A DNA stretch of 64,000 bases from an uncultured Gammaproteobacteria bacterium (GTDB lineage: Bacteria > Patescibacteriota > Patescibacteriia > Magasanikbacterales > UBA922). The stretch covers positions 12,252 to 76,251 of the forward strand of contig CAYSXR010000002.1 of NCBI GenBank assembly GCA_964435035.1, read 5' to 3'. The notes beneath the pieces were generated by a model, which searched no databases, was not told where the DNA came from, and was given only the letters and a program-made list of their open reading frames with translations. Each line of letters opens with the position of its first letter. Within the stretch, counting starts at the first letter, position 1. A program made the position numbers and the translations under genes. Positions 5,580 through 63,849 of the stretch are shown here, piece after piece.

Positions 5580-5766
5580 ATTCATCTATCATACGGACCC
5601 TTCACCTGTGCGTGAAGTGGTCCGTGTGATTTCCATCTATCACTTTGTAAGTGATTTTTTTGTTAGCATGTCTATATTCACTGTATCATTGACTTTTTTG
5701 TATTTATATGAAAGAATCTTTTTTGTTGCGTTGCATTTTCGTACGCACACATGTGGGAGCATCTTC

Positions 5767-6066: not shown

Positions 6067-6082
6067 GCCTCCGTGTCTTCCA

Positions 6083-6117
6083 TAGCAAGGACCTTTCCTT
6101 TCGAGGAATGGTCCTTG
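6083..6117 (+). terminator. Hairpin terminator closing high-GC island A
   Basis: CAAGGACCTTTCCTTTCGAGGAATGGTCCTTG: a 9-bp GC-rich stem. Confidence 0.6.
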
Positions 6118-6184
6118 CATCTTACATATTGTGGATACTGCTATTGTGGCAGTTTTTTTATATTATTTTTTCTTGGTATACTAC

Positions 6185-7441
6185 ATGTCTATGATATCTG
6201 ATGCTTTGCTAAAAATTGTAGCTTCACTTCCTCAGAATCCAGGGATTTATTTGTTTTATAATGTAAAAAAAGAATTAGTCTATGTGGGAAAAGCTACATC
6301 ATTACGAAGTCGTGTGCGAAGCTATTTTCTTGCACGTAAAACTCCTCGCCCGATTGAACAGATGATGCATGAGGTGATTACAATCAAATATATTGAAACT
6401 GATTCTGTACTTGAAGCAGTGATTCTCGAATCAATGTATATCAAAAAATTTCAACCAATTTATAATGTAGAAGGAAAAGATGATAAAAGTTGGAATTATA
6501 TTATGATTACGAATGAGCTGTATCCGCAGGTATATACAATGCGTGAACATGAGTATGTACGTCTGAGTTCTGATGAAATTAAAAAAGATTTTCTACACAT
6601 GTCCGGTCCATATCCTGGGTTGAATGCGAAAGTGACCATGAAGTTACTTCGAAGGTTATTTTATATTTCAACGTGCAAACCGAATGCGAAACGTCCTTGC
6701 TTGTATCGTCAAATGGGACAGTGTCTCGGTGTATGTACGGGAGAGATTACGAGTGGTGACTATCGGAGAAAAGTAATTCGACCCTTGATTACGTTTTTGT
6801 CAGGAGGAAAGAAAAAGCTTATTACATCTTTTGAAACTCAGATGGTGCGTGCTGCGCGTGCAGAGCAATTCGAAGAAGCGGCGCGTCTTCGTAATCAATT
6901 ACATGCACTTACCCGTATTCAGGATATTGCCCTTATTAATAAAGATTTCTTTGCTGATTTGGAACCAAAAAAAGAAGATACAATACACATGCGAATTGAA
7001 GGATATGATATTTCTAATTTAGGAAAGACAGGAAAAGTGGGGAGTATGGTGGTGTTTGATGCCGACGGGCCGATCAAACATTCGTATCGTAAATTTAAAA
7101 TTAAAACTGTTGAAGGGCAGAGTGATGTAGATTGTCTCGAAGAAGTATTAGTCCGTAGATTCAAGCATGTTGAGTGGAAATTTCCCACAGCAATTATGAT
7201 TGATGGGGGATATCCGCAAGTGAATCGCGCAAAAGAAGTGCTTACTCGACTCGGGATTGCAATTCCTCTGGTGGGTATTGCAAAAGGTCCGGAACGCAAG
7301 CGGAATGATTTTATTTTGGGTAATAGGGAGTCTGAGTTTGTGAAGTGGGTAGATCAACATCGAGAATTGTTGATCCGAGTAAGAGACGAAGCTCATCGTT
7401 TTGCGATTACATATCAAAGAAAGTTGAGGAAGATTGGATAA
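6185..7441 (+). CDS. uvrC: Excinuclease ABC subunit C, short form lacking the C-terminal HhH2 region
   Basis: N-terminal GIY-YIG (GIYLFYN..LVYVGKA), Cys-rich segment, and RNase-H-like endonuclease region (IEGYDISNLGKTGKVGSMVVFDADGP). Confidence 0.85.
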   Translation: MSMISDALLKIVASLPQNPGIYLFYNVKKELVYVGKATSLRSRVRSYFLARKTPRPIEQMMHEVITIKYIETDSVLEAVILESMYIKKFQPIYNVEGKDDKSWNYIMITNELYPQVYTMREHEYVRLSSDEIKKDFLHMSGPYPGLNAKVTMKLLRRLFYISTCKPNAKRPCLYRQMGQCLGVCTGEITSGDYRRKVIRPLITFLSGGKKKLITSFETQMVRAARAEQFEEAARLRNQLHALTRIQDIALINKDFFADLEPKKEDTIHMRIEGYDISNLGKTGKVGSMVVFDADGPIKHSYRKFKIKTVEGQSDVDCLEEVLVRRFKHVEWKFPTAIMIDGGYPQVNRAKEVLTRLGIAIPLVGIAKGPERKRNDFILGNRESEFVKWVDQHRELLIRVRDEAHRFAITYQRKLRKIG

Positions 7442-7536
7442 TCAAAAATTGAAGAATAAAGATTGGAAGATTAAAAAAACATCGTATCGATTTTATAATT
7501 TTCCAATCTTTATTTTTTTAATCTTTAATCTTTTTT

Positions 7537-7989
7537 ATGTCATGGGAACAGCGACGACACGAGTGGAAACAATCTCCGCCTGAAATAGATAAAATTGATG
7601 AGTGGTTTCATTCATTATCATCAGACGAGCGCTTTGACGCATTTTTTGGTTCTGCAAGTTTTAGAGATATTACTGATCAGTTTCAGCGTTATTTGCATAG
7701 TATTTTTGATGGTCAAAAATCTTCACAATTTCGTTTTGAGCCAACTTCAAAACTTATTTCTTTTGTGTTGGGTAAAATAGTCATAAAAACTCCTGAGTTT
7801 CGTAACACGGTTAAAGATAACCAGAACGTGGTGAAGGTTTTGTTGGAGCAAGAATCTCGAGTTATGTGTAGAATGTATGCAATTTGCACCTATGAACCCC
7901 AGAAAAAACCGGGTATATCAGAATTTGCATATAATTTGGACATTCCATGGAAATGGGAGGAAACTGCGGTTGAGATACTTGGGTTTTGA
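7537..7989 (+). CDS. Hypothetical protein
   Basis: 150-aa ORF bracketed by hairpin terminators. No recognisable motif. Confidence 0.45.
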   Translation: MSWEQRRHEWKQSPPEIDKIDEWFHSLSSDERFDAFFGSASFRDITDQFQRYLHSIFDGQKSSQFRFEPTSKLISFVLGKIVIKTPEFRNTVKDNQNVVKVLLEQESRVMCRMYAICTYEPQKKPGISEFAYNLDIPWKWEETAVEILGF

Positions 7990-8049
7990 GCTTCTAAAAG
8001 AAGCTATGGTCACTATACCTACGAGAGTGGGTATTTTTTATACACAACA

Positions 8050-8122
8050 AAGTGGATAAGTGGGGTTGTAAAGGGGTGTATGGTGGTGTAAAATGGCTGG
8101 TAGTGGAGAATTGTGGGGAATT
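8050..8122 (+). promoter_or_regulatory. Array of GTGG(G/A) direct repeats upstream of mraZ (MraZ-box operator-like)
   Basis: At least six GTGGR/GGTGG words between about 8052 and 8120, immediately 5' of mraZ. Confidence 0.5.
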
Positions 8123-8187
8123 TCCTCATCTAGAGAGTAATACGCCATGCTTGTCTGTATAACTCTCGCAGGCTCTCAAATCTATAT

Positions 8188-8619
8188 ATGTTTATAGGTG
8201 AATATAGCCACAATTTAGATGAGAAAGGTCGCCTTGCAATACCCAAGAAATTTCGAGCCGATCTTTCACAAGGTGCTGTAGTTACCCGAGGACTCGATAA
8301 CTGCCTTTTTTTGTACACCAAGGCAGAGTGGGCAAAACTTGCGGAAAAACTGGCACAGTTGCCTTTTTCTCAAGCAAATAGTCGTGCATTTGCTCGACTC
8401 ATGCTTGCAGGAGCTATGGATGTTGAAGTAGATACACAGGGACGTATTATTCTTCCTCCATATTTACGTTCGTTTGCTGGACTTAGTAAATCAGTCGTGA
8501 TTGCTGGTCTGTATACTCGTCTTGAAATCTGGGATGAATCAAAATGGAAGTCATATACTACCTCAACTGAGTCTGAAAGTACGACAATTGCAGAACAGAT
8601 GGGTAACCTCGGCGTATGA
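8188..8619 (+). CDS. mraZ: Transcriptional regulator MraZ
   Basis: N-terminus MFIGEYSHNLDEKGRLAIPKKFR and the duplicated MraZ fold. Sits at the head of the dcw cluster. Confidence 0.9.
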   Translation: MFIGEYSHNLDEKGRLAIPKKFRADLSQGAVVTRGLDNCLFLYTKAEWAKLAEKLAQLPFSQANSRAFARLMLAGAMDVEVDTQGRIILPPYLRSFAGLSKSVVIAGLYTRLEIWDESKWKSYTTSTESESTTIAEQMGNLGV

Positions 8620-9910: not shown

Positions 9911-9940
9911 TTAAAAACTCCTTAATTAAAAGGAGTTTTT
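9911..9940 (+). terminator. Terminator after the ftsL-like gene
   Basis: AAAAACTCCTTAATTAAAAGGAGTTTTTT. Confidence 0.7.
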
Positions 9941-10075
9941 TGTTTTATAGATTTTAATTCAAAACTCAAATCTCAAAGCTTAAAACTATAACTAAAAACT
10001 CAAAACTAAATTAGGTTTAACATTGGAGTTGTAAGTTTTAACTTTTGAGTTTTTCGTTTTGAGTTGAGCTAGACG
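9941..10075. repeat. CAAAACTC / GAGTTTTG word array forming a long imperfect hairpin
   Basis: TCAAAACTCAAATCTCAAAGCTTAAAACT..AAAAACTCAAAACTAAA, then GTTTTAACTTTTGAGTTTTTCGTTTTGAGTTGAG. Confidence 0.7.
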
Positions 10076-14888: not shown

Positions 14889-14893
14889 GAGAA

Positions 14894-15000
14894 AGTTGTC
14901 TGGTTTCCTGGTTATCTAGTTGTCTGGTTTTAGAGGTTGTATTTTGACTATTTAGACTAGAAAACTAGACAACTAGTAAACTAGTAGACCAGCAAACTAA
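14894..15000. repeat. GTCTGGTT / CTAGTT word repeat forming a long inverted repeat
   Basis: GTTGTCTGGTTTCCTGGTTATCTAGTTGTCTGGTT ... AGACTAGAAAACTAGACAACTAGTAAACTAGTAGACCAGCAAAC. Confidence 0.75.
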
Positions 15001-15405: not shown

Positions 15406-15438
15406 TAAAAACTCCTGCTAAAGCGGGAGTTTTTTTAT
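15406..15438 (+). terminator. Rho-independent terminator after rplU
   Basis: AAAAACTCCTGCTAAAGCGGGAGTTTTTTT: hairpin followed by a T-run. Confidence 0.7.
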
Positions 15439-15493
15439 TGACTAATTTAGTTGAGTAGGTTAGTCTAGTGGCGCGTTACACCAAGGAGGGCGC

Positions 15494-16000
15494 ATGTTCA
15501 ATTGGCTCAAAACTCTGTTTGGTATTCGTAAGGGTCCCCCTGCACTGGAAATTGTGTGGAGTTCGTATACTCCAAAACCACTGCCACCGGCAACGAATGT
15601 CTGCTGTGTCGAGGGTAAGCATGGCGAACTCATCCACTACCGCTGTGGACACACTCAGCCTGAGAGGTACTCCTTCAATCTCTACGGAGATACAATCACC
15701 TGGGATGACGAGAATTACGAACGACGTGATATCTGTGGTGAGTGCTGGCTGGAGAAGCTTCATCCTGGTGTCATCCGCTGTGCGCGGTGTGGGCTCGGCA
15801 TTCCACCGGGTTTTCATGTTGCGCTCTACAATGATGATGAATGCTACAACCCGAAGTGGAAGACTGTGGTCACCGGGTATCCGGGTAAGATGGTGATCGG
15901 GTGTGCACGTGTCGACTGTGAGCCTGGCGGCTTTGTTGCCGGCGTGTGGATGGGTGATCGTGTGGATCTCTTGTTTGGTCAAGGCTCGATTTTCCTCTGA
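15494..16000 (+). CDS. Cys/His-rich hypothetical protein in high-GC island B (putative zinc-binding)
   Basis: RBS CACCAAGGAGGG precedes the ATG. Cysteine pairs CC, CGEC, CARC, CARVDC. Hairpin terminator downstream. Confidence 0.45.
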   Translation: MFNWLKTLFGIRKGPPALEIVWSSYTPKPLPPATNVCCVEGKHGELIHYRCGHTQPERYSFNLYGDTITWDDENYERRDICGECWLEKLHPGVIRCARCGLGIPPGFHVALYNDDECYNPKWKTVVTGYPGKMVIGCARVDCEPGGFVAGVWMGDRVDLLFGQGSIFL

Positions 16001-16143
16001 GTTCATCGCACCAAGAGACCTTCTCGAGAATCCCTCAGACAGTTGAGTTTCTACTCAGACATCCGACCAAGTGCTTGAAATCACTGTAGGTCGGATGTCT
16101 TCTCAAAATTAATATAATAAAATTCCGCTGTATTGGCGGAATT

Positions 16144-16747: not shown

Positions 16748-17050
16748 TTAGCTCAAGCCTGGAATTTCAGGAAGCCCTCCCATTTCCTTCATTTTCATGG
16801 CCATAATTCGCTGCATCTTTTTCATACCATCTTTGTGAGCATCTTTGATTCCTTCGGTAAGCTTTGATTTTTTGTCAGGTGAAAGTAGGGAATCTTCAAT
16901 TACTACATTAGTAAGCTCTAGATTACCATTCATCGTAAGTGATACGGAACCACCTGCAGCAGTAGTGGTTACTGATTCCTGACCGAGAGTACTTTGTAAT
17001 TCTTTTGCCTTATCTCGGATATCTTTGAATTGCTTGAGTTTGTTGAACAT
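16748..17050 (-). CDS. ybaB: Nucleoid-associated protein YbaB/EbfC
   Basis: 100-aa YbaB-type sequence. Conserved pairing with recR. Confidence 0.8.
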   Translation of the reverse strand: MFNKLKQFKDIRDKAKELQSTLGQESVTTTAAGGSVSLTMNGNLELTNVVIEDSLLSPDKKSKLTEGIKDAHKDGMKKMQRIMAMKMKEMGGLPEIPGLS

Positions 17051-17131
17051 ATTTCAAATTTAAAACTTAAAGTTCAAAACTCAAAGCTTGGATTAAAAGA
17101 TTTGAGTTTTGAGTTAGAGTTTTATTTTTTT
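17046..17131. repeat. CAAAACTC / GAGTTTTG word array, second locus
   Basis: TTTAAAACTTAAAGTTCAAAACTCAAAGCTT..GATTTGAGTTTTGAGTTAGAGTTTT. Confidence 0.7.
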
Positions 17132-25516: not shown

Positions 25517-25550
25517 TACACATGAGATAGGATGAGCTAAGTTGACTAAG

Positions 25551-25590
25551 TTATCTGGTTTACTGGTTATCTAGTTGTACAGTTTGTAAT
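25551..25590. repeat. GTCTGGTT / CTAGTT word repeat copy (variant)
   Basis: TTATCTGGTTTACTGGTTATCTAGTTGTACAGTTTG. Confidence 0.6.
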
Positions 25591-26098: not shown

Positions 26099-26638
26099 AT
26101 GCCGTCACCCTTAAAAAAAGTTTCAGAAGAAATATTGCATGAAAATCCATGGTGGAGATATAAGCATGATATTTTTTCTTTCCCTGATGGTAAAGAGGGG
26201 AGTTATTACTATGGAGAAACGTATGGAATGTCCATTATTGTTCCTATTTTACCCGATGGTCGATTGATTTTGGTAAAACAATACCGGTATTTAAATGACA
26301 AATATAGTATTGAATTTCCTGGCGGAGGGATAAAAAAAGGAGAAGCACCGTCAGTTGTTGCTAAGCGAGAACTCATGGAAGAAACTGGTTTTACTGCTGA
26401 GGAATTTATTAATATTTCAAATTTTGAGCCGCATAATGGGTTATTTCTTGATTCGACGCATGTCTTTATTGCCAAACAAATTTCTCAGATCGATACTCAC
26501 AAGCCAAAGGGTGATGAAACCGAATTTATTGAAATATTGTTGCGTCGACCAGATGAAGTTGAACAGCTGATTCGGAATAATGAAATCTGGGATGGACAGA
26601 CTCTTGCGACATGGGCAGTGGCACGGTATTATGTATAA
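26099..26638 (+). CDS. Nudix hydrolase (ADP-ribose pyrophosphatase-like)
   Basis: Nudix box GGGIKKGEAPSVVAKRELMEETG. Confidence 0.8.
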   Translation: MPSPLKKVSEEILHENPWWRYKHDIFSFPDGKEGSYYYGETYGMSIIVPILPDGRLILVKQYRYLNDKYSIEFPGGGIKKGEAPSVVAKRELMEETGFTAEEFINISNFEPHNGLFLDSTHVFIAKQISQIDTHKPKGDETEFIEILLRRPDEVEQLIRNNEIWDGQTLATWAVARYYV

Positions 26639-29092: not shown

Positions 29093-29111
29093 GCTTATTT
29101 TAATAACTATA

Positions 29112-29142
29112 AAAAAGCCTTTATTTTAAGGGCTTTTTTGTT
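29112..29142 (+). terminator. Terminator after rfbD; left copy of a 35-bp direct repeat
   Basis: AAAAAAGCCTTTATTTTAAGGGCTTTTTTGTTTT. The same sequence recurs at 30011-30042 with one mismatch. Confidence 0.7.
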
Positions 29143-29154
29143 TTTATACTGTTA

Positions 29155-29183
29155 TTGACATAAATCCTTTTTTATGGTAATTT
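29155..29183 (+). promoter_or_regulatory. Sigma70-like promoter TTGACA-17-TAATTT for the island C Nudix gene
   Basis: Hexamers with a 17-bp spacer located 75 nt upstream of the ATG at 29258. Confidence 0.45.
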
Positions 29184-29257
29184 GTATTGTTTTCTTGGAA
29201 TATCCGAGATACAAGGTAACCTTTACATTGTTCCACCTGGCATTCGCCAAAGAGGAC

Positions 29258-29962
29258 ATGGCTGATAGTGATATCAGAGGTGTTTCTATGGGTTTCGAAA
29301 TGACGCCTATTCCGCCCGAGAAGGCGCGTGGGTGGAAGCTCGAGATCGATGGTGTCGAAGCTACGGCTTCGCTCATCGAGCTCGAGAGCAAGTTCGGAAA
29401 GCTGGTCTACGGTCTTCGCCCCGAAGGCTATGACAGCTGGGTGTTCTACGAGACCGGCGGGGGCGGGTCAGTGACCCTGCCCTTCAGCTGCAACGCCAAG
29501 ACGGGAGAGCTCCTCGTGGGTCTTCTTCCGGAAGTCCGCCCCAACATGGGCCCAGGTCTTCATCTGTGCATCGTTGGCGGCTTCAAGGAGCCGAACGAGA
29601 GCCATGTGGAGGCACAGGCTCGTGAAGCGGATGAGGAGGTTGGCATGGGCCATCTCGAGGCTATTGAGCTCGAGGGTTTGCCCTATAACTCCAACAGAAT
29701 GCTGTTCGTGGCCGATGCCTCTCAGGGTGAGGGAGTCCGCGCCTGGGGAATTCACATCCCATTCGCGTGTCTCGTGCCGAACGACGATGGTGGCTACCAT
29801 CTGACCAACCTCCAGCAGGCGGATGCTGATCGTCTCGGCAAGGCGAAGAACGTCGTCTTCTTCCCGTGGCATATCGCCACGAAGAAGACCTCTGACGCAC
29901 TCGCGCACGCTGCGATCCTGCAGCTACTCGCGATGCAGTGGGAGAACGGTCACATCCCCTGA
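29258..29962 (+). CDS. Nudix hydrolase encoded in high-GC island C
   Basis: Canonical Nudix box GGFKEPNESHVEAQAREADEEVGM. RBS AAAGAGGA. About 58% GC, against a low-GC genome. Confidence 0.65.
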   Translation: MADSDIRGVSMGFEMTPIPPEKARGWKLEIDGVEATASLIELESKFGKLVYGLRPEGYDSWVFYETGGGGSVTLPFSCNAKTGELLVGLLPEVRPNMGPGLHLCIVGGFKEPNESHVEAQAREADEEVGMGHLEAIELEGLPYNSNRMLFVADASQGEGVRAWGIHIPFACLVPNDDGGYHLTNLQQADADRLGKAKNVVFFPWHIATKKTSDALAHAAILQLLAMQWENGHIP

Positions 29963-30010
29963 CCTGTTCCTCCACCCGTCCCACTTGGATTTATTCAAGT
30001 GGGACATCTT

Positions 30011-30042
30011 CAAAAAAGCCTTTATTTTAAAGGCTTTTTTGT
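30011..30042 (+). terminator. Terminator after the island C gene; right copy of the 35-bp direct repeat
   Basis: AAAAAAGCCTTTATTTTAAAGGCTTTTTTGTTTT. Confidence 0.7.
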
Positions 30043-30108
30043 TTTACAAAACACTAGATTCTTGCTAAGCTTGAATATATCTCTATATTTAGTTTTATAG
30101 CCTATTTT

Positions 30109-32087: not shown

Positions 32088-33167
32088 ATGCAGAAGTTGC
32101 TTATACAATTGGTGACGTGGAATGGAAAAAAGTATATCCCATATCTTTTTGATTCTTTGCGGAAACAAAGTTTTACAGATTTCCATCTATTTATTCTTGA
32201 TAATGGTTCTACTGATGGGACACAAGAGTTAATTGAAAAAGAATTGCAGAATTTTCAGTTTGAATATACATTTGAAAAAAATGGAAAAAATGTTGGTTTT
32301 GCAGGAGGTCATAATCAAATTTATAAACTCAAAAGTCAAAACTCAAAAGTCAAAAGTTTTGATTATATACTTTTGTTGAATCAAGATGTGTATCTTACGT
32401 CAGATTGTATTGAGAGAATGGTTAATTTTTTGAAGAAAAATCCAGACGCTGCGGCAGTAAGCCCCAGACTTATGCGATGGAATTTTGCGGAAGCATCTGA
32501 AGGTATAGAAAAGAGTTTTAGTTTTTTTGTTGATTCACTTGGACTGCGAGTATTTCGAAATCGTCGGGTAATTGAGAAATATGCTGGACAAGTTTGGGAA
32601 GAAAAGAAATCACGGATGGAGTTATCGTTTCGAACCCATGATGATGCGATGGAAGTTTTTGGAGTGTCCGGAGCACTGCCCATGTTTCGGTGGAGTTGTC
32701 TTGAAGTGGTAAGTTTTGATGATCATACTTTTTTTGATACTAGTTATCACTCATACAAAGAGGATGTGGATCTTGCATATCGGCTTCGAATCGCGGGGCT
32801 CCGTTCGTATATACTTCTTGATTCAGTTGCATACCATGATCGAAGTGCGTTCGGCGTTGATCGGGTGGGAGATCGTATTTCTATACAAAATAAGAAAGTA
32901 CAACCTGAATGGATAAAATACCATAGCTATAAAAATCATCTGATGACGTTCTATAAGAATGAGTACTGGCAGAACACCATCCTTGATTTTCCGTGGATTT
33001 TGTGGTATGAGTTAAAGAAGTTTATATATTTTTTCCTATTTGATCGTTCGATTTTGAGGGGGTTAGGTGAAGTGTGGAAGGGGCGCACTGAGCTCCGCAA
33101 GAAAAGGCTTATGGTCAAAAAAATAAGGAAAGCTTCGTGGCAAGATCTGCGTGAGTGGTGGAAATAA
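32088..33167 (+). CDS. Glycosyltransferase family 2
   Basis: ILDNGSTDGT and LLLNQDV motifs. Contains an in-frame AAAGTC/AAAACTC hexamer repeat at 32325-32362. Confidence 0.75.
   Translation: MQKLLIQLVTWNGKKYIPYLFDSLRKQSFTDFHLFILDNGSTDGTQELIEKELQNFQFEYTFEKNGKNVGFAGGHNQIYKLKSQNSKVKSFDYILLLNQDVYLTSDCIERMVNFLKKNPDAAAVSPRLMRWNFAEASEGIEKSFSFFVDSLGLRVFRNRRVIEKYAGQVWEEKKSRMELSFRTHDDAMEVFGVSGALPMFRWSCLEVVSFDDHTFFDTSYHSYKEDVDLAYRLRIAGLRSYILLDSVAYHDRSAFGVDRVGDRISIQNKKVQPEWIKYHSYKNHLMTFYKNEYWQNTILDFPWILWYELKKFIYFFLFDRSILRGLGEVWKGRTELRKKRLMVKKIRKASWQDLREWWK
32325..32362. repeat. AAAAGTC/AAAACTC hexanucleotide repeat inside a GT2 coding region (in frame)
   Basis: CTCAAAAGTCAAAACTCAAAAGTCAAAAGTTTT encodes KLKSQNSKVKSF. 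Confidence 0.7.
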
Positions 33168-40376: not shown

Positions 40377-40730
40377 ATGCTTCATATTATCGGTATCGTT
40401 GTCCAAGGGGAGAAGCGTGGGCGTATTTTGGGTTTTCCTACTGCAAATATTGATATCAAAAAGAAAAAACTATATGTAACTCCTGGAATTTTTGCAGGAT
40501 GGGCAGTGGTTGGAAAAAAGAGGTATAAGGCGGCGGTATTTATTCCTACTACTCTTGATCGAGCTGAGGCTCATTTGCTCGATTATACAGGAAAGGAATT
40601 TTATGGAAAGCATATTGAACTCGAAGTATTGCAAAAGGTGAGCGAAATTGAGCGTTATGATACTACTGATGAATTGATCGAAAAAATTAAGAGTGATGTT
40701 GAGCTCGTAAGAGAAGTGTTGGAAAAGTAA
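40377..40730 (+). CDS. Riboflavin kinase (monofunctional RibF C-terminal-domain homolog)
   Basis: GIVVQGEKRGRILGFPTANI flavokinase motif. Confidence 0.7.
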   Translation: MLHIIGIVVQGEKRGRILGFPTANIDIKKKKLYVTPGIFAGWAVVGKKRYKAAVFIPTTLDRAEAHLLDYTGKEFYGKHIELEVLQKVSEIERYDTTDELIEKIKSDVELVREVLEK

Positions 40731-40760
40731 AAGTGAAAAAGTTAAAAGGTAAAAAAATCC
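40727..40760. repeat. GTAAAAG word motif copy
   Basis: AAGTAAAAGTGAAAAAGTTAAAAGGTAAAAAAATCC. Confidence 0.55.
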
Positions 40761-41637: not shown

Positions 41638-41640
41638 AAT

Positions 41641-41676
41641 GGTTTTCTGGTTGTCTAGATTACTAGTTGTCTGGTC
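41641..41676. repeat. GTCTGGTT / CTAGTT word repeat copy
   Basis: GGTTTTCTGGTTGTCTAGATTACTAGTTGTCTGGT, immediately 5' of the era start. Confidence 0.7.
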
Positions 41677-41736
41677 AGTAAAAAGAATATATCATGTTAT
41701 TGCCTAAATTTCAAGGATGTTGTATCATATTCCCAT

Positions 41737-47444: not shown

Positions 47445-47451
47445 AGGTTGT

Positions 47452-47545
47452 ATTTATCCGTGTAGATCCGTGTCATCAGTGTTCTATTCTAAAACATTCG
47501 CTAATGGAACACGGATGACACGGATCTAACGGATTGGAACGGATT
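47452..47545. repeat. ACGGAT-word palindromic intergenic element, copy 2
   Basis: GGAACACGGATGACACGGATCTAACGGATTGGAACGGATTT plus an upstream inverted arm. Abuts the tsaE start codon. Confidence 0.85.
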
Positions 47546-47550
47546 TAATT

Positions 47551-48883: not shown

Positions 48884-49285
48884 TTATTTGTATTCTTTGA
48901 TAACTTCAATTACATTTGGGGCACAATCTTCAGGGAGATTATTAATATCAAACCATTCCCATTCTACAATATTAGACCCAGGTTTTATTTCTCCAATTCG
49001 TTTTGCAAGATAGTGAATAAGAATCACTAATTTTTCTGGTTGGTCTGGACGAAATACGAGCATTGGTTTGAGGGGTTGTATAATTTCAACTTCAATTCCC
49101 ATTTCTTCCATCACTTCACGCTTACATGCGTCTTCGAGTGAAATGTCAAAAGACTCGACTTCTCCTCCAGGAAAAAGCCAGGGAGTAATCCGTCCATCAT
49201 CTTTTTGTTCTTTATTTAGCAACACCTTACCATCTTCGATAATGACAGGTCCTGAGGCAATGATTGTTTGGGCGGGGAGATTCAT
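48884..49285 (-). CDS. Nudix hydrolase
   Basis: Nudix box GGEVESFDISLEDACKREVMEEMG. Confidence 0.75.
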   Translation of the reverse strand: MNLPAQTIIASGPVIIEDGKVLLNKEQKDDGRITPWLFPGGEVESFDISLEDACKREVMEEMGIEVEIIQPLKPMLVFRPDQPEKLVILIHYLAKRIGEIKPGSNIVEWEWFDINNLPEDCAPNVIEVIKEYK

Positions 49286-49697
49286 ATGCAGGTATTGTAG
49301 CTAAGATGGCGAAATATCACAAGCTGGTTTTGGTTGACTTTCGGTGGGATGTATTGTATGCTTTTCTGCGGATTTTGCCCGAAGTACGGGTCCGTCACCC
49401 AAGTACTGTGGAGGTTAGTTCATGTTCACTCTGGTGTGCGTCATGGGACTCTGGACCCAGATCGTGTGTGTCCCGGACAAGGGAAGGAAGATTACTCGAG
49501 TTCGGAATCGCAAACATGGCTGGCACGTCGGAGGGGCGGGACAGCTTCCGATGGGTCATCGGCGGAAATTCAGGAAGCCGCGTTGAGTGACTGGGAGTGG
49601 TAGATCTGGGAACAGATCTTAGCTCAGGAGCGCTTTCCTGGATTCATCATGTCGTCGACGGGACTGTGCATCGCACGGTCCCGTCAGTTCTCTTACC

Positions 49698-49728
49698 TAT
49701 TTATTCGAGCCCTATCGGGCTTTTATTA
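49698..49728 (+). terminator. Intrinsic terminator ending a high-GC plus-strand transcript within island D
   Basis: GAGCCCTATCGGGCTTTTATTATTTT. Confidence 0.6.
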
Positions 49729-49833
49729 TTTTACCAAATAAAGTATTGACTTTATGATAATGTTTATATATCCTATTGCGGTGCTTAGCTCGACCTCGGT
49801 CGAGTTGTGCCGTCAACCAGAGGAAACATCATC

Positions 49834-50040
49834 ATGTCAGATTCAGAAAGAAATGATCAGCCGCGCCTTCGGAGTCGCCGTCGAGTCCATACTGCCGGAG
49901 CTTTCGATCACATTCAACGTGTGCTCGTCGACGAAGAGCAGAATATGCCACCCTATCGGAACGTAGGGCATCAGCAGCCCGGAGTGCGTCTCAGTGATGC
50001 ATGCATCATTCCCAACCAGCGGCCGGACTACAAGTCCTGA
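49834..50040 (+). CDS. Hypothetical small protein (68 aa) in high-GC island D
   Basis: RBS AGAGGAAA 7 nt upstream of the ATG. Arg-rich N-terminus. A bidirectional terminator lies at 50108-50134. Confidence 0.3.
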   Translation: MSDSERNDQPRLRSRRRVHTAGAFDHIQRVLVDEEQNMPPYRNVGHQQPGVRLSDACIIPNQRPDYKS

Positions 50041-50107
50041 TCCGTGATCCTCTTGCCCGGAGACTGCTCGCTCAATGCGAGTAGTCTTCCTGGCCCCTTC
50101 GTCAAAT

Positions 50108-50134: not shown

Positions 50135-51807
50135 TATGTTATTTCTTTAATCATGTACGTTCCTTCTTTTTTGTAGCCAAGCTTTTCATAATATCCCCGT
50201 ACACCTACTCCGGAAATTACGGCAAGTTTTTTTACGTTATTTTTTTTGGTAATGCGTTCAGCCTCGGCCATTAATTTTTTTCCATATCCTTTGTGCTGAC
50301 TACCGATTGTTTTTGTCTTTCCAATTCCAATCATTTGTCCGTATACATGGAGTTCACGGATGAATGCGCTTCCTTTGATTTCGGGCATGAGGGTGTGCAG
50401 GGTTTCTAGTTGTCTGGTTTTCTGGTTGTCTGGTTCGTGAGGAATGCGGAGACGAAGAAAACCGTAGACTGCGATACGATTTTTATCTTCCATTGAAATA
50501 AAGTATTCGGTCCCTCCAATAGTTTCGTAGGTGTCTACGAAAACGTGTGGTTCAGCGTCTGGATCTATCTTGTCTTTTTGGCGATAAATCTCTCGGCAAC
50601 GCAAACACTCGCAATGTTTTCCTTCTTTTTTGAGTTGGTACTCGAGCATTTCACGGAGGTTGGTGATGATATTTCCATTTTCAATTTCTGTTGCAGGAAT
50701 ATCTCGAATAAGTCGGGAAATACGGCAATAGCGTGGAGTTGCAAGTTTCATTTCGAGTAATGCCCGGAACAATCCTTCATCTCCATATGATTTGTAACGA
50801 CCATCTAAGAACCATTGGTATAATTCTGCTGATTTAATTACGGTGTTTGGATAAATCTTAATCATGTCTGGACGAAGTCCTAAATCTGAAAAGATTTCTT
50901 TATACATTTCAATATCATGTTCAGGTGTGGTTCCAGGTAAATCTGGCATGAAGTGTAAATCCACTTTGAATCCCGCTTCGCGAAGCAAATAAATTGCGTC
51001 ACGGAATTGTTGTACCGTATGTCCTCGATTGATCAGCTTTAAAATAGTATCATCAGTTGCTTGAAGTCCGAGTTCAATTCGCGTACAACCTTGTAAACGC
51101 ATGTGATGAATAGATTTCGGTGAAATTGCATCGGGTCTGGTTTCAAGGGTCAAGCCAATAATACGATGTCCGGTTGATTCATTGATGGTTTGTTCCATAT
51201 CTAATGCAGCTTGTAGGTCAGCAATAGATTTGTCATTCCAATATTCTTCAGGTGTGGGACCTATAGGTACTTCTCGATTGAAGTCATTGCAAGCTTTAAA
51301 GGATTCGAGAATAAACCAATATTGGTATTTGAGAGGGTAGGCATTCCAGGTTCCACCTTTTAATATGTATTCAATTTTGTCTGTTGGGTGTCCGTTCAAT
51401 TCAAGCATTTCAAGACGTTTTTTCATTTGCTCGTACGGACTAAAATCAAGTCTGAGAGCTCGTGCTGCTGCTGGTTCGGTGGCAATATAGCTTTTTGGCA
51501 TTCTAAGTTCGGTAGGGCAGTAAATGCATTTACCGGGGCAGGTATAGGGTTTTACCAGAGAGGTAATTATTACTACTCCAGAGAGTGTTCGCACATTTGC
51601 TTTGCGTAGGAAAAATTCCATCTGTTCGTCGGGTAGAATACTTTTCTTTTCAATAAGACTCTGGTAGGCTATGAGCAGTGCCTGATTTGCAGGCTGTCGA
51701 ATATTTAGCTTCGAAGCACCACGACGTTTTGCATCGTCAAAATCGTCCTTGGTTAGAGGCTTGTCGTCGACAATATATTTCATTAGTTTTTCAGCGATTT
51801 CGTTCAT
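50134..51807 (-). CDS. elp3: Elp3-family radical-SAM/GNAT protein (tRNA uridine-34 modification acetyltransferase homolog)
   Basis: Radical SAM core (CPGKCIYCP) and C-terminal GNAT domain (HKGYGKKLMAEAERI). 557 aa. Confidence 0.85.
   Translation of the reverse strand: MNEIAEKLMKYIVDDKPLTKDDFDDAKRRGASKLNIRQPANQALLIAYQSLIEKKSILPDEQMEFFLRKANVRTLSGVVIITSLVKPYTCPGKCIYCPTELRMPKSYIATEPAAARALRLDFSPYEQMKKRLEMLELNGHPTDKIEYILKGGTWNAYPLKYQYWFILESFKACNDFNREVPIGPTPEEYWNDKSIADLQAALDMEQTINESTGHRIIGLTLETRPDAISPKSIHHMRLQGCTRIELGLQATDDTILKLINRGHTVQQFRDAIYLLREAGFKVDLHFMPDLPGTTPEHDIEMYKEIFSDLGLRPDMIKIYPNTVIKSAELYQWFLDGRYKSYGDEGLFRALLEMKLATPRYCRISRLIRDIPATEIENGNIITNLREMLEYQLKKEGKHCECLRCREIYRQKDKIDPDAEPHVFVDTYETIGGTEYFISMEDKNRIAVYGFLRLRIPHEPDNQKTRQLETLHTLMPEIKGSAFIRELHVYGQMIGIGKTKTIGSQHKGYGKKLMAEAERITKKNNVKKLAVISGVGVRGYYEKLGYKKEGTYMIKEIT
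50401..50437. repeat. GTCTGGTT / CTAGTT word repeat copy embedded in-frame in the elp3 coding region
   Basis: GGTTTCTAGTTGTCTGGTTTTCTGGTTGTCTGGTT encodes the HEPDNQKTRQLET insert on the minus strand. Confidence 0.7.
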
Positions 51808-51811
51808 GCTA

Positions 51812-51915
51812 TCTTTATAGAATAGAACACGGATGACACGGATCTAACGGATTAGAACGGATTTGTATTTATCCGTGTCTATCCATTTAATCCGTTAAAT
51901 CAGTGTTCCATTTAT
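51812..51915. repeat. ACGGAT-word palindromic intergenic element, copy 3
   Basis: TAGAATAGAACACGGATGACACGGATCTAACGGATTAGAACGGATTT plus inverted arm. Lies between divergent elp3 and the MTase-Nudix gene. Confidence 0.85.
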
Positions 51916-51921
51916 CAAATT

Positions 51922-53061
51922 ATGCAAAATAACAATTTCATTTCCCAAAATAAAGACGTCTATAATACTATTGCTTCGTATTTTTCTAGTACCCGTCAAT
52001 TTGTCTGGGAAGATTTAAAGGATTTTTCCCAGTATATCACGAAGGAAGACACGGTTCTTGATATTGGCTGTGGGAACGGTAGAGTATATCAATTATGCGA
52101 GAATTTGCAAGTAGCTTACACTGGAATTGATCAGAGTGAAGAGCTCATCGCGATTGCTAAAAATAAGTATCCGACAGTTCATTTTGATGTAGGGGAGATG
52201 ACTGAGCTTCCATACGAGGATGCCTCTTTTTCTATAATTATTTGTGTTGCAACTTTTAATCATTTACCTGATCGTGATTCACGATTGAAATCACTTGGTG
52301 AGATGAAGCGGGTACTCAAACCTGGTGGAATAATTCTCATGACGAATTGGAATGTATTATCAGATAATGCACAGAAGTACATTGATCGTGAAAAATGGAA
52401 AATTGTAGATAATAATAGACAAGATGTATTAGTGCCATGGATGACGCCGGTTGGTGAAAAAATGCCGGGTGATCGGTATTATCATGGGTATGAGTTATCG
52501 GAATTATTTGAATTATTTACGGATATTGGGTTTATTGTCGAGCAACAATATTATGCAAAAAAAGGGAAGCGAAGTAATAAACATCAAGGGCATAATATGG
52601 TAAGTATCGTACGGAATAAGTGGACCGGTGTGCCTTCTGCTGGGGGAGTGGTAGTGCGAAAAGAGGGTGATAAATATGTAGTGGCACTTGAACGCGATAC
52701 TGCATTGGAAAAATCCGACTACTGGTTTATTCCCAAGGGGCACCTGGATTCAGGAGAAACATTGGAAGAAGCTGCACGAAGAGAAATTAGTGAGGAAGTT
52801 GGAATTTTAGAATTGGAATATGAATGTTTTCTGATGAAAAGTGAACGAAAGTCGTTTGTCGGGGATGAGTGGAAGAATATGTATTATTTTTTGTATATCA
52901 CAAAACAAATTGAATTAAAACCAAAGCTATTGTCAGGAGAGAGACATCATGAAGCTAAATGGGTAGATTTGTTTCAAAAGGAACCTATATCTTCGTTTGA
53001 GGAGCAAGAAAACGTTTTTAAATTGGTACGGACTTATATTGACGCGCGTAAGATTTCTTGA
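51922..53061 (+). CDS. Fusion protein: class I SAM methyltransferase (N-terminal) plus Nudix hydrolase (C-terminal)
   Basis: VLDIGCGNGRV and VLKPGGIIL MTase motifs, then Nudix box GHLDSGETLEEAARREISEEVG. Confidence 0.7.
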   Translation: MQNNNFISQNKDVYNTIASYFSSTRQFVWEDLKDFSQYITKEDTVLDIGCGNGRVYQLCENLQVAYTGIDQSEELIAIAKNKYPTVHFDVGEMTELPYEDASFSIIICVATFNHLPDRDSRLKSLGEMKRVLKPGGIILMTNWNVLSDNAQKYIDREKWKIVDNNRQDVLVPWMTPVGEKMPGDRYYHGYELSELFELFTDIGFIVEQQYYAKKGKRSNKHQGHNMVSIVRNKWTGVPSAGGVVVRKEGDKYVVALERDTALEKSDYWFIPKGHLDSGETLEEAARREISEEVGILELEYECFLMKSERKSFVGDEWKNMYYFLYITKQIELKPKLLSGERHHEAKWVDLFQKEPISSFEEQENVFKLVRTYIDARKIS

Positions 53062-53086
53062 CGCTTTTGTGCATTTGCATTAGAGT
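53058..53086 (+). promoter_or_regulatory. Sigma70-like promoter TTGACG-17-TAGAGT for the island E gene
   Basis: Hexamers with an exact 17-bp spacer. They overlap the stop codon of the upstream gene. Confidence 0.45.
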
Positions 53087-53140
53087 ACATCCGGTTTCTT
53101 TCATGACTGGGTTTGTTCCATCACCAAGGAGGTGTGGTGT

Positions 53141-53428: not shown

Positions 53429-53495
53429 AAGAGCGGGAGCAGCGCCAGGTGAGTAATTAATGAAGGAAGCACGTAGGGTGTGGATTCCCCATACC

Positions 53496-61135: not shown

Positions 61136-61139
61136 AATT

Positions 61140-63847: not shown

Positions 63848-63849
63848 GT

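Follow-up and report, generated by a model that had tools for sequence, protein, structure and literature searches.

A GC-rich Nudix unit in the glycan cluster of a CPR chromosome: probable long residence and maintained composition

Nudix genes can be embedded in polysaccharide clusters, as is the case for Gmm/WcaH in the colanic acid cluster. Autonomous units of promoter, gene and terminator, with a deviant composition and a position between other genes, have been described in phages as morons, a concept associated with Hendrix and Juhala. In general, an atypical GC content is routinely taken as evidence of recent horizontal transfer. With regard to translation, lineages that are poor in Shine-Dalgarno (SD) sites, such as the Bacteroidetes, keep strong sites in a few genes for special regulation. 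The CPR bacteria considered here have not been cultured, and how they express their genes has hardly been studied.

The window analysed, a stretch of 64,000 nucleotides from a Magasanikbacteria-like CPR chromosome, carries a cluster of rfb, phosphosugar-isomerase (SIS), GT2 and NDP-sugar-transferase genes in which a block with abrupt edges (29221-30030) reaches 0.573 GC, against 0.398 for the window as a whole and in agreement with the value of about 58% given by the first-pass annotation. The Nudix ORF within this block has a GC content of 0.60 and a third-position GC (GC3) of 0.73, while the GC3 of the window is 0.31. The features of the locus are collected in Table 1. As judged from its sequence and that of its relatives, the Nudix gene appears to be an old resident and not a recent import, and it probably forms a vertically inherited, self-contained transcription unit whose high GC content is maintained.

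Table 1. Features of the Nudix unit and its borders (positions in the window)
Feature	Position	Strand	Detail
Repeat, upstream copy; bidirectional intrinsic-terminator-like hairpin	29111-29144		AAAAAAGCCTTTA-TTT-TAAGGGCTTTTTT + GTTTT
Promoter (putative)	29155-29183	+	-35 TTGACA 29155-29160; 17-nt spacer; extended -10 TGgTAATTT 29175-29183
5' leader, ~100 nt, conserved	29184-29287	+	Four predicted helices
SD site AGAGGTG	29276-29282	+	5 nt before start codon
Nudix hydrolase ORF	29288-29962	+	224 aa + stop; putative two-domain protein, NDP-sugar-diphosphatase-like
Nudix box GFKEPNESHVEAQAREADEEVGM	29579-29647	+	Residues 98-120
GC-rich 3' hairpin	29978-30005	+	GTCCCACTTGGA-TTTA-TTCAAGTGGGAC, 12 bp; then pyrimidine tail ATCTTC
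Repeat, downstream copy; predicted terminator of the Nudix unit	30012-30045		Stem fully paired; better conserved copy
Promoter-like TTGCTA-16-TATATT for the SIS/GT2 unit	30062-30089	+	Generic promoter scan; outside the cassette

The context is similar to that of Gmm/WcaH, with a Nudix gene among genes for nucleotide-sugar synthesis and glycosyltransferases. The unit also resembles a moron in being a single gene with its own predicted promoter and terminator, placed between co-oriented genes and in sharp compositional contrast to them. Unlike a moron, it lies outside any prophage, with housekeeping and glycan genes as neighbours, and it is vertically inherited with a persistent composition. Phage databases gave it no counterpart either: its only PHROG match was to a generic Nudix family (E 1e-3), tblastn against 50,697 phage records returned none, and searches of all the cassette proteins of the window with PHROGs, PADLOC and phage tblastn yielded generic Nudix-box matches alone. 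As in integron cassette arrays, small single-gene units are each followed by an imperfect palindrome and vary in content between genomes. However, neither IntI or another tyrosine recombinase nor attI was found in the window, the repeat is terminator-like and, by inspection, free of the attC cores GTTRRRY and RYYYAAC, the Nudix unit has its own conserved promoter, and the repeat is confined to a single slot. Finally, an atypical genomic islet would share with this locus the GC content (0.60 vs 0.40) and codon usage far off the genome mean and the flanking direct repeats; unlike such an islet, the unit shows no amelioration after saturating synonymous divergence and keeps its position among relatives, the searches gave no donor from beyond the lineage, and the window contains neither a tRNA gene nor an integrase.

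Architecture of the unit and the encoded protein

The TTGACA-17-TAATTT promoter proposed by the first-pass annotation is present, with an extended -10 element, and its position is conserved in eight genomes (the window, L001, L002, L008, L017 and L046-48), in which both hexamers and the TGn motif are kept and the spacer is variable. A generic scan misses this site because TAATTT fits just three of six positions; the site is predicted to act as a sigma-70-type promoter. The leader alignment has a mean column identity of 88% over seven genomes, against ~74% for the DNA of the window and L002 overall, and RNAalifold predicts 28 pairs, four of them with double changes. The last predicted helix engages the spacer and the 3' portion of the SD site, and the single-sequence folding z of the leader is just -1.7. 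No match to Rfam at the gathering threshold was found in the window, and a permissive scan of the cassette gave only terminator-like noise (E 0.2-0.9).

The start codon had first been assigned to ATG 29258, giving a protein of 234 aa behind AAAGAGGA as ribosome-binding site. This motif (29249-29256) and the ATG that follows lie inside the leader and are regarded as decoys: all N-termini across the family start M-x-F-E/D-M, and L001 has a frameshift between ATG 29258 and ATG 29288, so the true start is the latter. The SD site in front of it would form a duplex of -9.6 kcal/mol with a presumed anti-SD, and it is kept in homologs (-5.8 to -13.3 kcal/mol). At the other end of the ORF, the 3' hairpin has a folding energy of -19.4 kcal/mol (z = -5.4), with 100% of cells paired in six genomes and two pairs that show U-A to C-G double changes, a covariation score attained in 4 of 500 shuffles. 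The promoter-like sequence beyond the cassette is kept in L001 and L046, and is predicted to restart transcription of the cluster 3' of the cassette, so that the SIS unit would run from a promoter of its own.

The Nudix box, already described as a textbook one, matches GX5EX7REUXEEXGU exactly, and no change at G98, E104, R112, E113, E116 or E117 was seen among 17 family members. The match to Pfam NUDIX (PF00293) is marginal, with 22.6 bits for a cutoff of 21.1, and covers the box region alone. In an AF2 model of moderate confidence (pLDDT 73.7), beta strands at residues 16-94 precede the box helix. Foldseek gave 102 PDB matches for this model at E <= 1e-3, of which the top 50 are all Nudix enzymes; NUDT5, the ADPRase NudF and the GDP-mannose hydrolase NudK are the top matches, with low TM values of 0.35-0.50. 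The protein therefore resembles, as far as the model can be relied upon, two-domain NDP-sugar and ADP-ribose diphosphatases such as human NUDT5 and E. coli NudF and NudK/YffH, with which it has in common the canonical box, a length of ~215-224 aa and perhaps, as modelled, an extra N-terminal beta-rich domain. At the sequence level, however, similarity to these enzymes does not go beyond the box (HMM E 4e-4 for ADPRase and 8e-5 for the best profile overall), and the family has invariant motifs of its own, namely YGLRPEGYD, GGGG and NxNR. The signature of ADPRases, reportedly described by Dunn and co-workers in 1999 as a proline located 15-16 residues beyond the Nudix box, is also absent, since positions +15/+16 are S135/N136; P132, at +12, varies among family members. 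The gene has a dN/dS of 0.23-0.29, and an exact-sequence lookup found no identical protein on record. The genomic context, with rfb, SIS/PGI-PMI, NTP-transferase and GT2 genes, points to a role in NDP-sugar metabolism, and the substrate is most likely a nucleotide sugar of the ADP-ribose/GDP-mannose class. By hydrolysing it, the enzyme would trim the pool of precursors on which the pathway for the envelope glycan draws.

Inheritance of the unit and history of the slot

The same order of terminator, promoter, leader, Nudix gene, hairpin and terminator is found in seven other assemblies (L001, L002, L008, L017 and L046-48; the contig of L017 ends inside the Nudix gene). Both terminator copies are present in 7/7 of these slot-clade relatives, where protein identity falls as low as 54%, and the Nudix copies of the slot are monophyletic. 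Their identity tracks that of the SIS protein (77/58/54% vs 94/84/74%), and the dS values of the Nudix gene, 0.63 and 1.07, compare with 0.34-0.65 and 1.25-2.6 for the flanks, being saturated against L002 with an unchanged GC3. By dS, monophyly and SIS-parallel divergence, the gene is thus neither younger than its flanks nor incongruent with them.

Such a shared architecture also bears on the integrity of the contig. An abrupt change of composition in metagenome-derived sequence might suggest that a foreign GC-rich fragment was joined into a CPR contig by misassembly or contamination, but this is refuted because the same junctions occur in eight assemblies that are independent and stem from different projects, with leader, hairpin and terminators conserved across them; a chimera can be given next to no credence.

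With regard to the distribution of the family, all 27 of the 27 named word-index matches are from CPR, and the 16 genome loci are labelled as CPR except for six MAGs labelled 'uncultured Gammaproteobacteria', among which L008 has the window's own CPR synteny. An exhaustive search returned 146 family clusters at E <= 1e-30, a set that carries no taxonomy. Among homologs with a source name or a genomic context, the family appears to be confined to CPR. Genes of the glycan cluster adjoin the Nudix gene in 15 of 23 loci, in at least five arrangements that include Saccharibacteria. This identifies a Nudix family that is restricted to CPR and associated with a cluster for an envelope glycan.

The content of the slot is not constant: L002 has a gene x and Nudix, L008 has Nudix and Nudix2, and in the more distant L024-L028 and L033 the place between rfbD and SIS is taken by another gene, lipoprotein-like and of low GC, which implies that the Nudix gene was placed in the slot at some point. 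The uninterrupted junction with a single terminator envisaged by the first-pass annotation was not found, as none of 22 SIS-anchored metagenome loci has an empty rfbD-SIS junction. The four native low-GC Nudix genes that it had counted in the window were all located (26099-26638, 48884-49285(-), 51922-53061 and 55079-55627(-)), and the GC-rich gene is indeed set apart from them, with similarity limited to the box (E 0.075 or worse). Its description as an acquired extra copy accordingly holds for the distinct composition, for the lack of a native duplicate and for a placement in the slot sometime, and is not supported in the sense of a recent foreign import.

A recent import would mean that a foreign GC-rich Nudix cassette was inserted at the rfbD terminator through site-specific or illegitimate recombination, leaving a duplicated scar, and has not yet been ameliorated. 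The sharp GC step, the unit's own promoter and terminator, the 33/34 flanking repeat, the lack of relationship to the native paralogs and the other gene in the slot of distant relatives would all be compatible with such an event, as would the observation that most transfer in Patescibacteria takes place from Patescibacteria to Patescibacteria (PMC12455944). It is nonetheless very improbable, and already largely refuted, given a unit retained with both terminators throughout the slot clade, synonymous divergence equal to that of the flanks and saturated against L002 with GC3 unchanged, monophyly of the slot copies, a family that is CPR-only among sourced homologs and tied to the cluster, and a high GC content in hosts of 0.29-0.49 GC. 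Furthermore, no recombinase, transposase, integrase or phage gene is present among the ~60 genes of the 64 kb, and phage matches are lacking. With a GC3 of 0.73-0.79 against a native value of ~0.3 after about one synonymous turnover, a conserved position and a CPR-only family, the Nudix gene would be misclassified by composition-based callers of horizontal transfer.

The 34-nt repeat

The two copies of the direct repeat flanking the unit are identical at 33 of 34 positions by alignment, which upholds the single mismatch noted initially and corrects the length from 35 to 34 nt and the coordinates by 1-3 nt. In 100 dinucleotide-preserving shuffles, no match with three or fewer mismatches arose by chance. 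Each copy folds into a hairpin with an A/U-extended stem of 13-15 bp: the upstream one has -14.7 kcal/mol on the + strand and -8.7 on the - strand (z = -4.1), and the downstream one -15.4 and -15.8 kcal/mol, respectively (z = -5.3). They are located 3' of rfbD and 3' of the hairpin that follows the Nudix gene, both end in a T6GT4 tail, and a terminator scan lists the upstream copy. A stable stem-loop with a U-tract at the 3' end of a gene is what characterises Rho-independent terminators, and the repeat is predicted to be the unit's own bidirectional intrinsic terminator, while its upstream copy is predicted to terminate the rfbB-FdtA-rfbD unit. The Nudix unit would in this way be insulated from the rfbD unit by the upstream copy and from the SIS unit by the downstream one.

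The downstream sequence is also present 3' of Nudix in L001, L002, L008 and L046-48, and 3' of the extra GC-rich genes in L002 and L008, where the copies within a genome have genome-private loop variants in common. Among all the loci scanned, the repeat is absent from those that lack Nudix. Homology with L001 breaks upstream of the unit and resumes at 29113, within the upstream copy, which on this comparison appears to be the right-hand boundary of a swapped rfbB-FdtA-rfbD module. The same terminator stands 3' of every GC-rich slot unit across three array states and, being also a recombination joint, it marks the cassette boundaries. In relatives the upstream copy has diverged, and that of the window equals the downstream consensus, which points to a recent conversion or crossover. 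The first reading of the repeat as a scar of insertion or recombination can therefore be kept as regards a cassette boundary and a recombination joint; it is not a fresh insertion scar, because both copies occur in all seven slot-clade relatives. We suggest that the terminator copies are kept alike by function together with recombination or gene conversion, that they act as crossover points, and that the exchange of the entire rfbB-FdtA-rfbD module in the lineage of the window came about through a crossover of this kind. The locus thus shows terminators in the role of recombination joints for rfb module swaps.

These features might also be ascribed to a mobile cassette system, in which the 34-nt palindrome would be an att- or attC-like site and a recombinase encoded elsewhere would shuffle GC-rich cassettes. 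A slot that holds one or two GC-rich genes depending on the genome, with the same repeat 3' of each, private variants shared by the copies of a genome and the absence of the repeat wherever Nudix is absent are in line with this proposal. It is nevertheless improbable, since no recombinase was found in the 64 kb, the other five cassette sites of the window have terminators unrelated to the repeat, the repeat, with just 3 nt between its arms, looks and scores like an ordinary terminator, the cassettes bring promoters of their own, and their content is stable over the slot clade.

Probable maintenance of the composition and the GC-rich gene class

Across relatives, the GC3 of the Nudix gene is held at 0.73-0.79 while that of its neighbours is 0.26-0.38, and in hosts whose GC content ranges from 0.29 to 0.49 the gene is richer in GC than its flanks by 0.15-0.27; even in a genome of 0.30 GC the gene is GC-rich. 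Since GC3 has been kept through synonymous turnover, a gene-specific force must hold the composition. Per site, S>W and W>S changes occur at similar rates in the Nudix gene, against the 2.3:1 implied for native genes. Recent third-position changes still lean towards S>W (24 vs 9), from which an equilibrium GC3 of nearly 0.5 and not of 0.75 would be expected. A slow decay of its GC3 may accordingly be under way.

Counting Nudix, the window has seven or more GC-rich genes, all of them equipped with a promoter-like site, a 3' hairpin and a strong SD site, and cassette B behaves in L051 in the same way as Nudix. In seven separate units, the GC boundaries coincide with the transcript limits, the promoter and the terminator being AT-rich, and the untranslated regions are GC-enriched as well; in L003, the GC-rich 5' region exceeds 200 nt. 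With a presumed anti-SD, the cassettes have SD scores between -5.9 and -15.0 and native genes average -1.0, and this split between cassette and native genes is repeated in four relatives. The picture is reminiscent of SD-poor lineages, where most genes are without SD sites and a small minority has strong ones; unlike there, the minority is GC-rich, separately promoted and hairpin-capped, and consists of lineage-specific small proteins and not of ribosomal components. Pfam detected no families in A1, A2, B, D1, D2, E, the additional gene of L002 and two GC-rich genes of L016, and a search of the literature on GC-rich genes or islands in CPR found nothing specific.

At the level of RNA folding, the GC-rich genes have a density of -0.45 kcal/mol/nt, compared with -0.24 for native genes. 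Structure of the ORFs beyond composition is inconsistent, with z from -1.3 to -4.8 for Nudix genes, about 0 for cassettes A1 and B, and a value of -2.9 for one of the native genes. All three codon positions are shifted, G3 and C3 are both raised, and the usage of GARP amino acids is 0.30 vs 0.22. The codon shift is uneven, as WWY codons are C-ending in 81-92% of cases and GAY/CAY codons in 47-55%, a pattern that fits an avoidance of all-A/T triplets. Avoidance of A/T runs across codons was weak in synonymous permutations (p 0.04-0.09 in four cassettes) and not seen in Nudix. An avoided nuclease site was sought among 3- and 4-mers against codon-resampled nulls, with mild TTA/TAA depletion as the only signal. 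Two further candidates were discarded: translational optimisation, because ribosomal-protein genes have a different codon usage (their GC3 is 0.21-0.28; the A3 value of the cassettes is 0.07-0.10), and a strand-specific depletion of A by editing or a DGR-like process, as the ORF overall has roughly as much A as T (AT skew about -0.02).

The concerted shift of all codon positions and UTRs, the rise of both G3 and C3 and the altered GARP usage are what GC-biased gene conversion would also produce, if the slot were a recombination hot spot where GC-favouring repair holds the composition in the absence of selection on RNA or protein, and recombination at the terminators is evident from the module swap and from terminator homogenisation. 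Several observations make this unlikely: the adjacent rfbB-FdtA-rfbD module, which has itself recombined, has 0.38 GC, the GC limits are those of the transcript in seven units, the codon shift differs between WWY and GAY/CAY, dS is not above that of the flanks, and the accompanying strong SD sites are not predicted by a conversion bias. An explanation at the codon level has a similarly small probability. Here, G/C-ending codons that are rare in the host would throttle or condition translation through tRNAs or their modifications, with structure as a by-product; the usage is the reverse of that of bulk and ribosomal-protein genes, the pattern is codon-specific, and a Nudix enzyme that destroys NDP-sugars could plausibly be harmful if over-made. 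Against it, untranslated leaders and trailers are also GC-enriched, the strong promoter and SD site predict efficient and not weak expression, and the window contains no tRNA genes.

Our best guess is that selection on the mRNA maintains the GC-rich style. High GC would then be a maintained property of 5'UTR, ORF and 3'UTR, exclusive of promoter and terminator, and not that of unameliorated foreign DNA. A GC-rich transcript with hairpins at both ends would fold about twice as stably per nucleotide and offer few AU-rich single-stranded sites, so that an SD site would be needed to start translation, and the class would follow a regime of stability and translation apart from that of the bulk of AT-rich, SD-independent genes. 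Only tentatively, this could be extended to a view of Magasanikbacteria-type CPR as having two expression styles, the minority one being a selected post-transcriptional regulon of small, mostly lineage-specific genes, Nudix among them, that bear a consensus -35 and extended -10 promoter, a strong SD site, a GC-rich 3' hairpin and a high GC content along the whole transcript. If so, GC-rich mRNAs might survive or be translated when AU-rich, SD-independent messages fail, for instance under AU-directed RNase attack, in dormancy or with an altered ribosome state. The link between strong SD sites and GC-richness offers a testable handle on translation initiation and mRNA stability in CPR.

Antisense ORFs extend across the cassette, and one of them is annotated as a gene in L001; since their reading frames are interrupted in the window, they are regarded as a side effect of the GC3-rich coding sequence.

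Architecture of the Nudix unit and its product

The GC-rich block of the Nudix unit, within the rfb/GT2 glycan cluster, has a GC content of 0.573 against 0.398 for the whole window and holds a single real ORF with a canonical Nudix box. It is flanked by two copies of a 34-nt direct repeat, AAAAAAGCCTTTATTTTAA(G/A)GGCTTTTTTGTTTT, which are identical at 33 of 34 positions; 100 shuffles of the window gave no chance match. Both copies are A-tract/stem/T-tract hairpins (plus-strand folding of -14.7 and -15.4 kcal/mol), the downstream one folding equally well on the minus strand and the upstream one being flagged as terminator-like by a generic scan. The putative promoter, TTGACA-17-TAATTT, has a TGg in front as an extended -10.

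The first-pass annotation had described the GC-rich block, the direct repeat, the promoter hexamers, the Nudix box and four low-GC native Nudix genes, and these observations stand; the four genes have a third-position GC (GC3) of 0.28-0.33, and their kinship to the cassette Nudix stops at the box. The start proposed there, a 234-aa frame from ATG 29258 with AAAGAGGA as RBS, is wrong. Since every homolog begins with M-x-F-E/D-M and a 1-nt indel separates the two possible ATGs in the homologous locus L001, the start is the other ATG (29288; 224 aa), with AGAGGTG as its predicted Shine-Dalgarno (SD) site. AAAGAGGA is an upstream SD-like decoy within the leader, which is 88% conserved among orthologs (alignment A2), above coding DNA. 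The last predicted helix of the leader overlaps the SD region, and no Rfam match was found; the leader may act in translational control. Across six genomes, two pairs of the 3' hairpin show double compensatory changes and none is disrupted.

Features of the window discussed in the text
Feature	Position	Strand	Remarks
dTDP-sugar module without homology to L001	26790-29110		left end approximate
Repeat, upstream copy	29111-29144		
Promoter-like site	29155-29183		
Nudix leader	29184-29287		
GC-rich block	29221-30030	+	
Predicted SD site	29276-29282		AGAGGTG
Predicted Nudix start	29288		
Variable segment	~29735-29830		residues ~150-180
Repeat, downstream copy	30012-30045		
A1 and A2, tandem units	5084-6110	+	between uvrA and uvrC
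A1 ORF	5163-5579	+	GC3 0.70, SD -10.8; no PHROG or PADLOC family
A2 ORF	5767-6066	+	GC3 0.66, SD -6.5; no PHROG or PADLOC family
B ORF	15494-16000	+	unit 15430-16098; between L21 gene and recR; Cys-rich, 168 aa
Native Nudix gene	48884-49285		adjoins D1 and D2
D1 and D2 units	49334-50100	+	between two minus-strand genes
D1 ORF	49422-49586	+	54 aa
D2 ORF	49834-50040	+	68 aa
Methyltransferase-Nudix fusion gene	51922-53061		
E ORF	53141-53428	+	unit 53059-53492; directly 3' of the fusion gene; 95 aa
GTTGTCTGGTTTTCTAGTTGTCTGGTT-like repeats	896-941, 14893-14930, 25548-25585, 41640-41677, 50383-50444, 63839-63876		
ACACGGATGACACGGAT...AACGGAT family	1994-2078, 47448-47550, 51784-51934, 57675-57759, 61138-61250		
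AAAACTYAAAAC / TAAAAGTAAAAG-type repeats	282-307, 1932-1957, 2309-2352, 9933-10004, 17048-17091, 32310-32360, 40722-40747		
MraY-like gene	58465-59595	-	
Local GC peak	59341-59590		GC 0.51

With regard to the protein, Pfam covers the Nudix box alone (22.6 bits), and the family HMM matches PDB Nudix enzymes weakly. In the AlphaFold model (pLDDT 73.7), a beta domain at the N-terminus precedes the Nudix domain; the top PDB hits of the model are NUDT5, the ADP-ribose pyrophosphatase NudF and the GDP-mannose hydrolase NudK, with a probability of 1.0 and TM-scores of just 0.35-0.50. The ADPRase proline signature is absent. From the constant company of dTDP-sugar genes, a PGI/PMI-type SIS protein, a ManC-like NTP-transferase and four GT2s, we infer a nucleotide-sugar diphosphatase that would trim envelope-glycan precursors; that such a cluster holds a Nudix gene is in itself ordinary. 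Substitutions between close homologs are concentrated in one segment (GIHIPFACLVPNDDGGYHLTNLQQADA in the window, AIRVPFSWLVSNGDQSYSFAMITGENA in L001), both protein ends being nearly identical; either a variable loop or a tract of mosaic recombination would fit.

Carriers, descent and recombination

A search of 5.8 billion proteins returned 27 relatives, the named ones all labelled Candidatus Magasanikbacteria or unnamed bacterial MAG, and a profile run exhaustively against 1.84 billion representatives, in a library without taxonomy, gave 146 clusters at E <= 1e-30. Scanning one genome per species yielded 16 Nudix-family loci, most with CPR labels (Magasanikbacteria, Uhrbacteria, Peribacteria, Saccharibacteria, Curtissbacteria), and among the loci found no copy was seen in a clearly non-CPR genome. 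Six of the 16 come from MAGs labelled 'uncultured Gammaproteobacteria'; among these, L008 shares the synteny of the window, so that at least its label looks wrong.

The order HIT-Nudix179-rfbB-...-rfbD-[GC-rich Nudix]-SIS-GT2 is found in seven other assemblies (L001, L017, L002, L008, L046-48), together with the promoter, leader, 3' hairpin and terminators, save that the L017 contig ends inside the gene and leaves its 3' end unseen. Elsewhere the gene occupies other places in the glycan cluster: after the NTP-transferase (L005-7, L010), before GT2a (L013, L015) or beside rfb genes (L021 and L023, both Saccharibacteria). In L024-28 and L033, whose SIS proteins are 57-68% identical, the rfbD-SIS interval, or slot, holds a low-GC lipoprotein-like gene and no Nudix; an empty junction was not found among the relatives. 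Because the slot copies form one clade in the family tree and Nudix identities of 77/58/54% track SIS identities of 94/84/74%, the gene is a long-standing accessory of the glycan cluster, and it entered the slot a single time, in the ancestor of a subclade. Synonymous divergence is comparable in the Nudix gene (dS 0.63 for window-L001, 1.07 for window-L002) and its neighbours (0.34-0.65 and 1.25-2.6), so that they have diverged together, and a dN/dS of 0.23-0.29 indicates purifying selection.

The feature is real, yet it differs from the first reading of it and is not an unameliorated import: its dS resembles that of the flanks, its layout is kept in seven assemblies, and its GC3 has not changed after about one synonymous change per site relative to L002 (0.73, 0.79 and 0.76 in the window, L001 and L002, against 0.26-0.38 in the neighbours). 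A trans-acting cassette recombinase is possible but improbable, and nothing points to one. The gene content is that of an ordinary chromosome (UvrA, UvrC, MraZ/W, ClpB-like, MraY-like, L21, RecR, DnaB, CTP synthase, L9, Era, SHMT, TsaE, Mur enzymes), recombinase, transposase, tRNA and phage genes are all absent from the 64-kb window, and phage and defence-system sets gave the cassette proteins nothing beyond generic Nudix-box hits.

Some relatives carry further GC-rich genes. In L002, a 183-aa gene without a Pfam family (L002x, 5322-5873) lies ahead of the Nudix; its only homologs in the fetched loci, L021 6799-7284 and L023 6803-7273 of Saccharibacteria, are immediately 3' of the Nudix homolog, which suggests an old two-gene module. 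L008 has a second GC-rich Nudix in the slot, 3' of the first (Nudix2, 6233-6883, 216 aa, Pfam NUDIX E 5.6e-11), whose promoter -35 is made up of the last bases of the terminator before it (TTTTGACA); another terminator copy comes after this gene. In L016, of 0.49 GC, two such genes without a Pfam family lie either side of the Nudix homolog (3707-4483 and 7393-8325, both minus strand; GC3 0.83 and 0.76). The public annotation of L001 has a 298-aa gene antisense to the entire unit (5824-6720, minus strand), probably an artefact of GC3-rich coding, since the equivalent frame is broken in the window.

One terminator sequence (T) lies 3' of every GC-rich unit in the slot, giving the arrays T-Nudix-T (window, L001, L046-48), L002x-T-Nudix-T (L002) and Nudix-T-Nudix2-T (L008), and it is absent at loci without the Nudix. 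The repeat thereby appears to be the unit's own terminator. It does mark the cassette boundary, as the first-pass annotation had it, but it is no fresh scar of an insertion, the arrangement being as old as the clade. Copies of the same genome have loop variants in common that are private to it: ATTTTA occurs twice in the window and AGTTYA twice in L008, and L002 has short loops. The downstream copy is well conserved between genomes (consensus GCCTTTATTTTAAGGGC) and the upstream copy drifts in L046, L047, L048 and L001; the upstream copy of the window equals the downstream consensus exactly. Window-L001 homology ends just inside rfbB (~26790) and restarts at 29113, in the first bases of this copy, so that the window carries a different rfbB-FdtA-rfbD module, non-homologous to L001 3982-5825 between flanks of 83-90% DNA identity. 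The module resembles those of L013 and L033 (rfbB 75-76% aa), and L047 and L048 join a window-type rfbD to an L001-like Nudix. The dTDP-sugar module has thus undergone allelic replacement, and the terminator repeat was the site of the right-hand crossover. Terminators were duplicated as units came or went, their likeness being kept by function and conversion, and have served as crossover sites.

A class of GC-rich genes and the origin of its composition

The window contains at least six further GC-rich single-gene units, all on the plus strand. In each, an AT-rich promoter-like site of the TTGAC type precedes a short GC-rich leader, and the 3' hairpin is likewise GC-rich. None of their ORFs has a Pfam family. 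B has just two homologs among the 5.8 billion proteins; the one in L051 (1374-1916) keeps the L21-RecR position between flanks of ~75% DNA identity, with a strong SD and a GC3 of 0.68, the flanks having a GC of 0.42. That cassettes lie close to Nudix genes may be a coincidence (p roughly 0.07).

The enrichment covers the transcript, namely the 5'UTR (0.41-0.65), the ORF and the 3'UTR (0.46-0.60; native intergenic DNA 0.34), and stops short of the promoters (0.18-0.39) and terminators. A-ending codons are almost gone (A3 0.07-0.10 vs 0.31), NAR codons are 76-91% G-ending, and C-ending codons reach 81-92% for TTY, TAY, AAY and ATY and 47-55% for GAY and CAY. This set is not used in ribosomal-protein genes, which rules it out as the host's preferred set. 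Per nucleotide, the folding of cassette mRNAs is about twice as stable (-0.45 vs -0.24 kcal/mol/nt); structure in excess of composition is inconsistent.

The composition has also persisted. Throughout a deep clade, Nudix GC exceeds that of the flanks by 0.15-0.27 while host GC ranges from 0.29 to 0.49 (in L003, 0.62 in a genome of 0.30), and outgroup homologs from Saccharibacteria and Curtissbacteria have the GC of their hosts. Polarised recent third-position changes in the slot clade comprise 24 from G/C to A/T and 9 in reverse, far from the ~7:1 expected under free decay. On ~168 G/C and 56 A/T sites the per-site rates are nearly equal, implying an equilibrium GC3 of ~0.53; from native composition, the AT bias would be 2.3-fold and the equilibrium 0.30. 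Slightly deleterious G/C-to-A/T mutations are usually in excess among recent changes, and the 24:9 pattern does not prove an exact equilibrium.

All seven cassettes have SD sites, with anti-SD duplexes of -5.9 to -15.0 kcal/mol (five of seven at -9.6 or below), as do 16 GC-rich genes of relatives (-5.8 to -13.3). The mean for 57 native genes, with A/T-rich upstream regions, is -1.0 kcal/mol, and even if each gene is credited with the strongest site at any possible start within its first 40 codons, 2% reach -9, as often as random 18-mers (2%; cassette-ORF 18-mers 5.5%). The split recurs in L001, L002, L003 and L005 (native means -0.2 to -1.3). Native genes essentially without SD sites are probably a lineage-level trait, the 16S 3' end with its anti-SD lying outside the window.

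We favour selection on the transcript as the cause of the GC enrichment. A GC-rich, hairpin-capped mRNA would offer few AU-rich single-stranded sites; the route of native genes, whose initiation is structure-free and SD-independent, would be closed to it, and for this reason it would require an SD site. Biased gene conversion, which would tie GC to recombination, is disfavoured, as the adjacent recombining rfb module is still AT-rich, the GC boundaries coincide with the transcript, the shift in usage differs from codon to codon and the SD sites are left unexplained. Throttling at the codon level is possible and would fall in with the codon shift, but leaves the GC-rich UTRs unexplained. No description of such a gene class or phenomenon was found in the literature, the nearest paper reporting that most transfer in Patescibacteria occurs among Patescibacteria (PMC12455944). 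A gene class with its own composition and expression signals in an AT-rich, SD-poor CPR genome is unusual and testable.

Other repeats and a local GC peak

Three repeat families are present in the window. The first is intergenic with 8-nt periodicity (GTTGTCTGGTTTTCTAGTTGTCTGGTT-like, six places); the second, ACACGGATGACACGGAT...AACGGAT and its inverted form (ATCCGTGT...), lies between divergent or convergent genes; the third comprises short periodic A-rich repeats (AAAACTYAAAAC / TAAAAGTAAAAG-type), mostly intergenic. Additionally, GC rises locally in the 5' part of the MraY-like gene.
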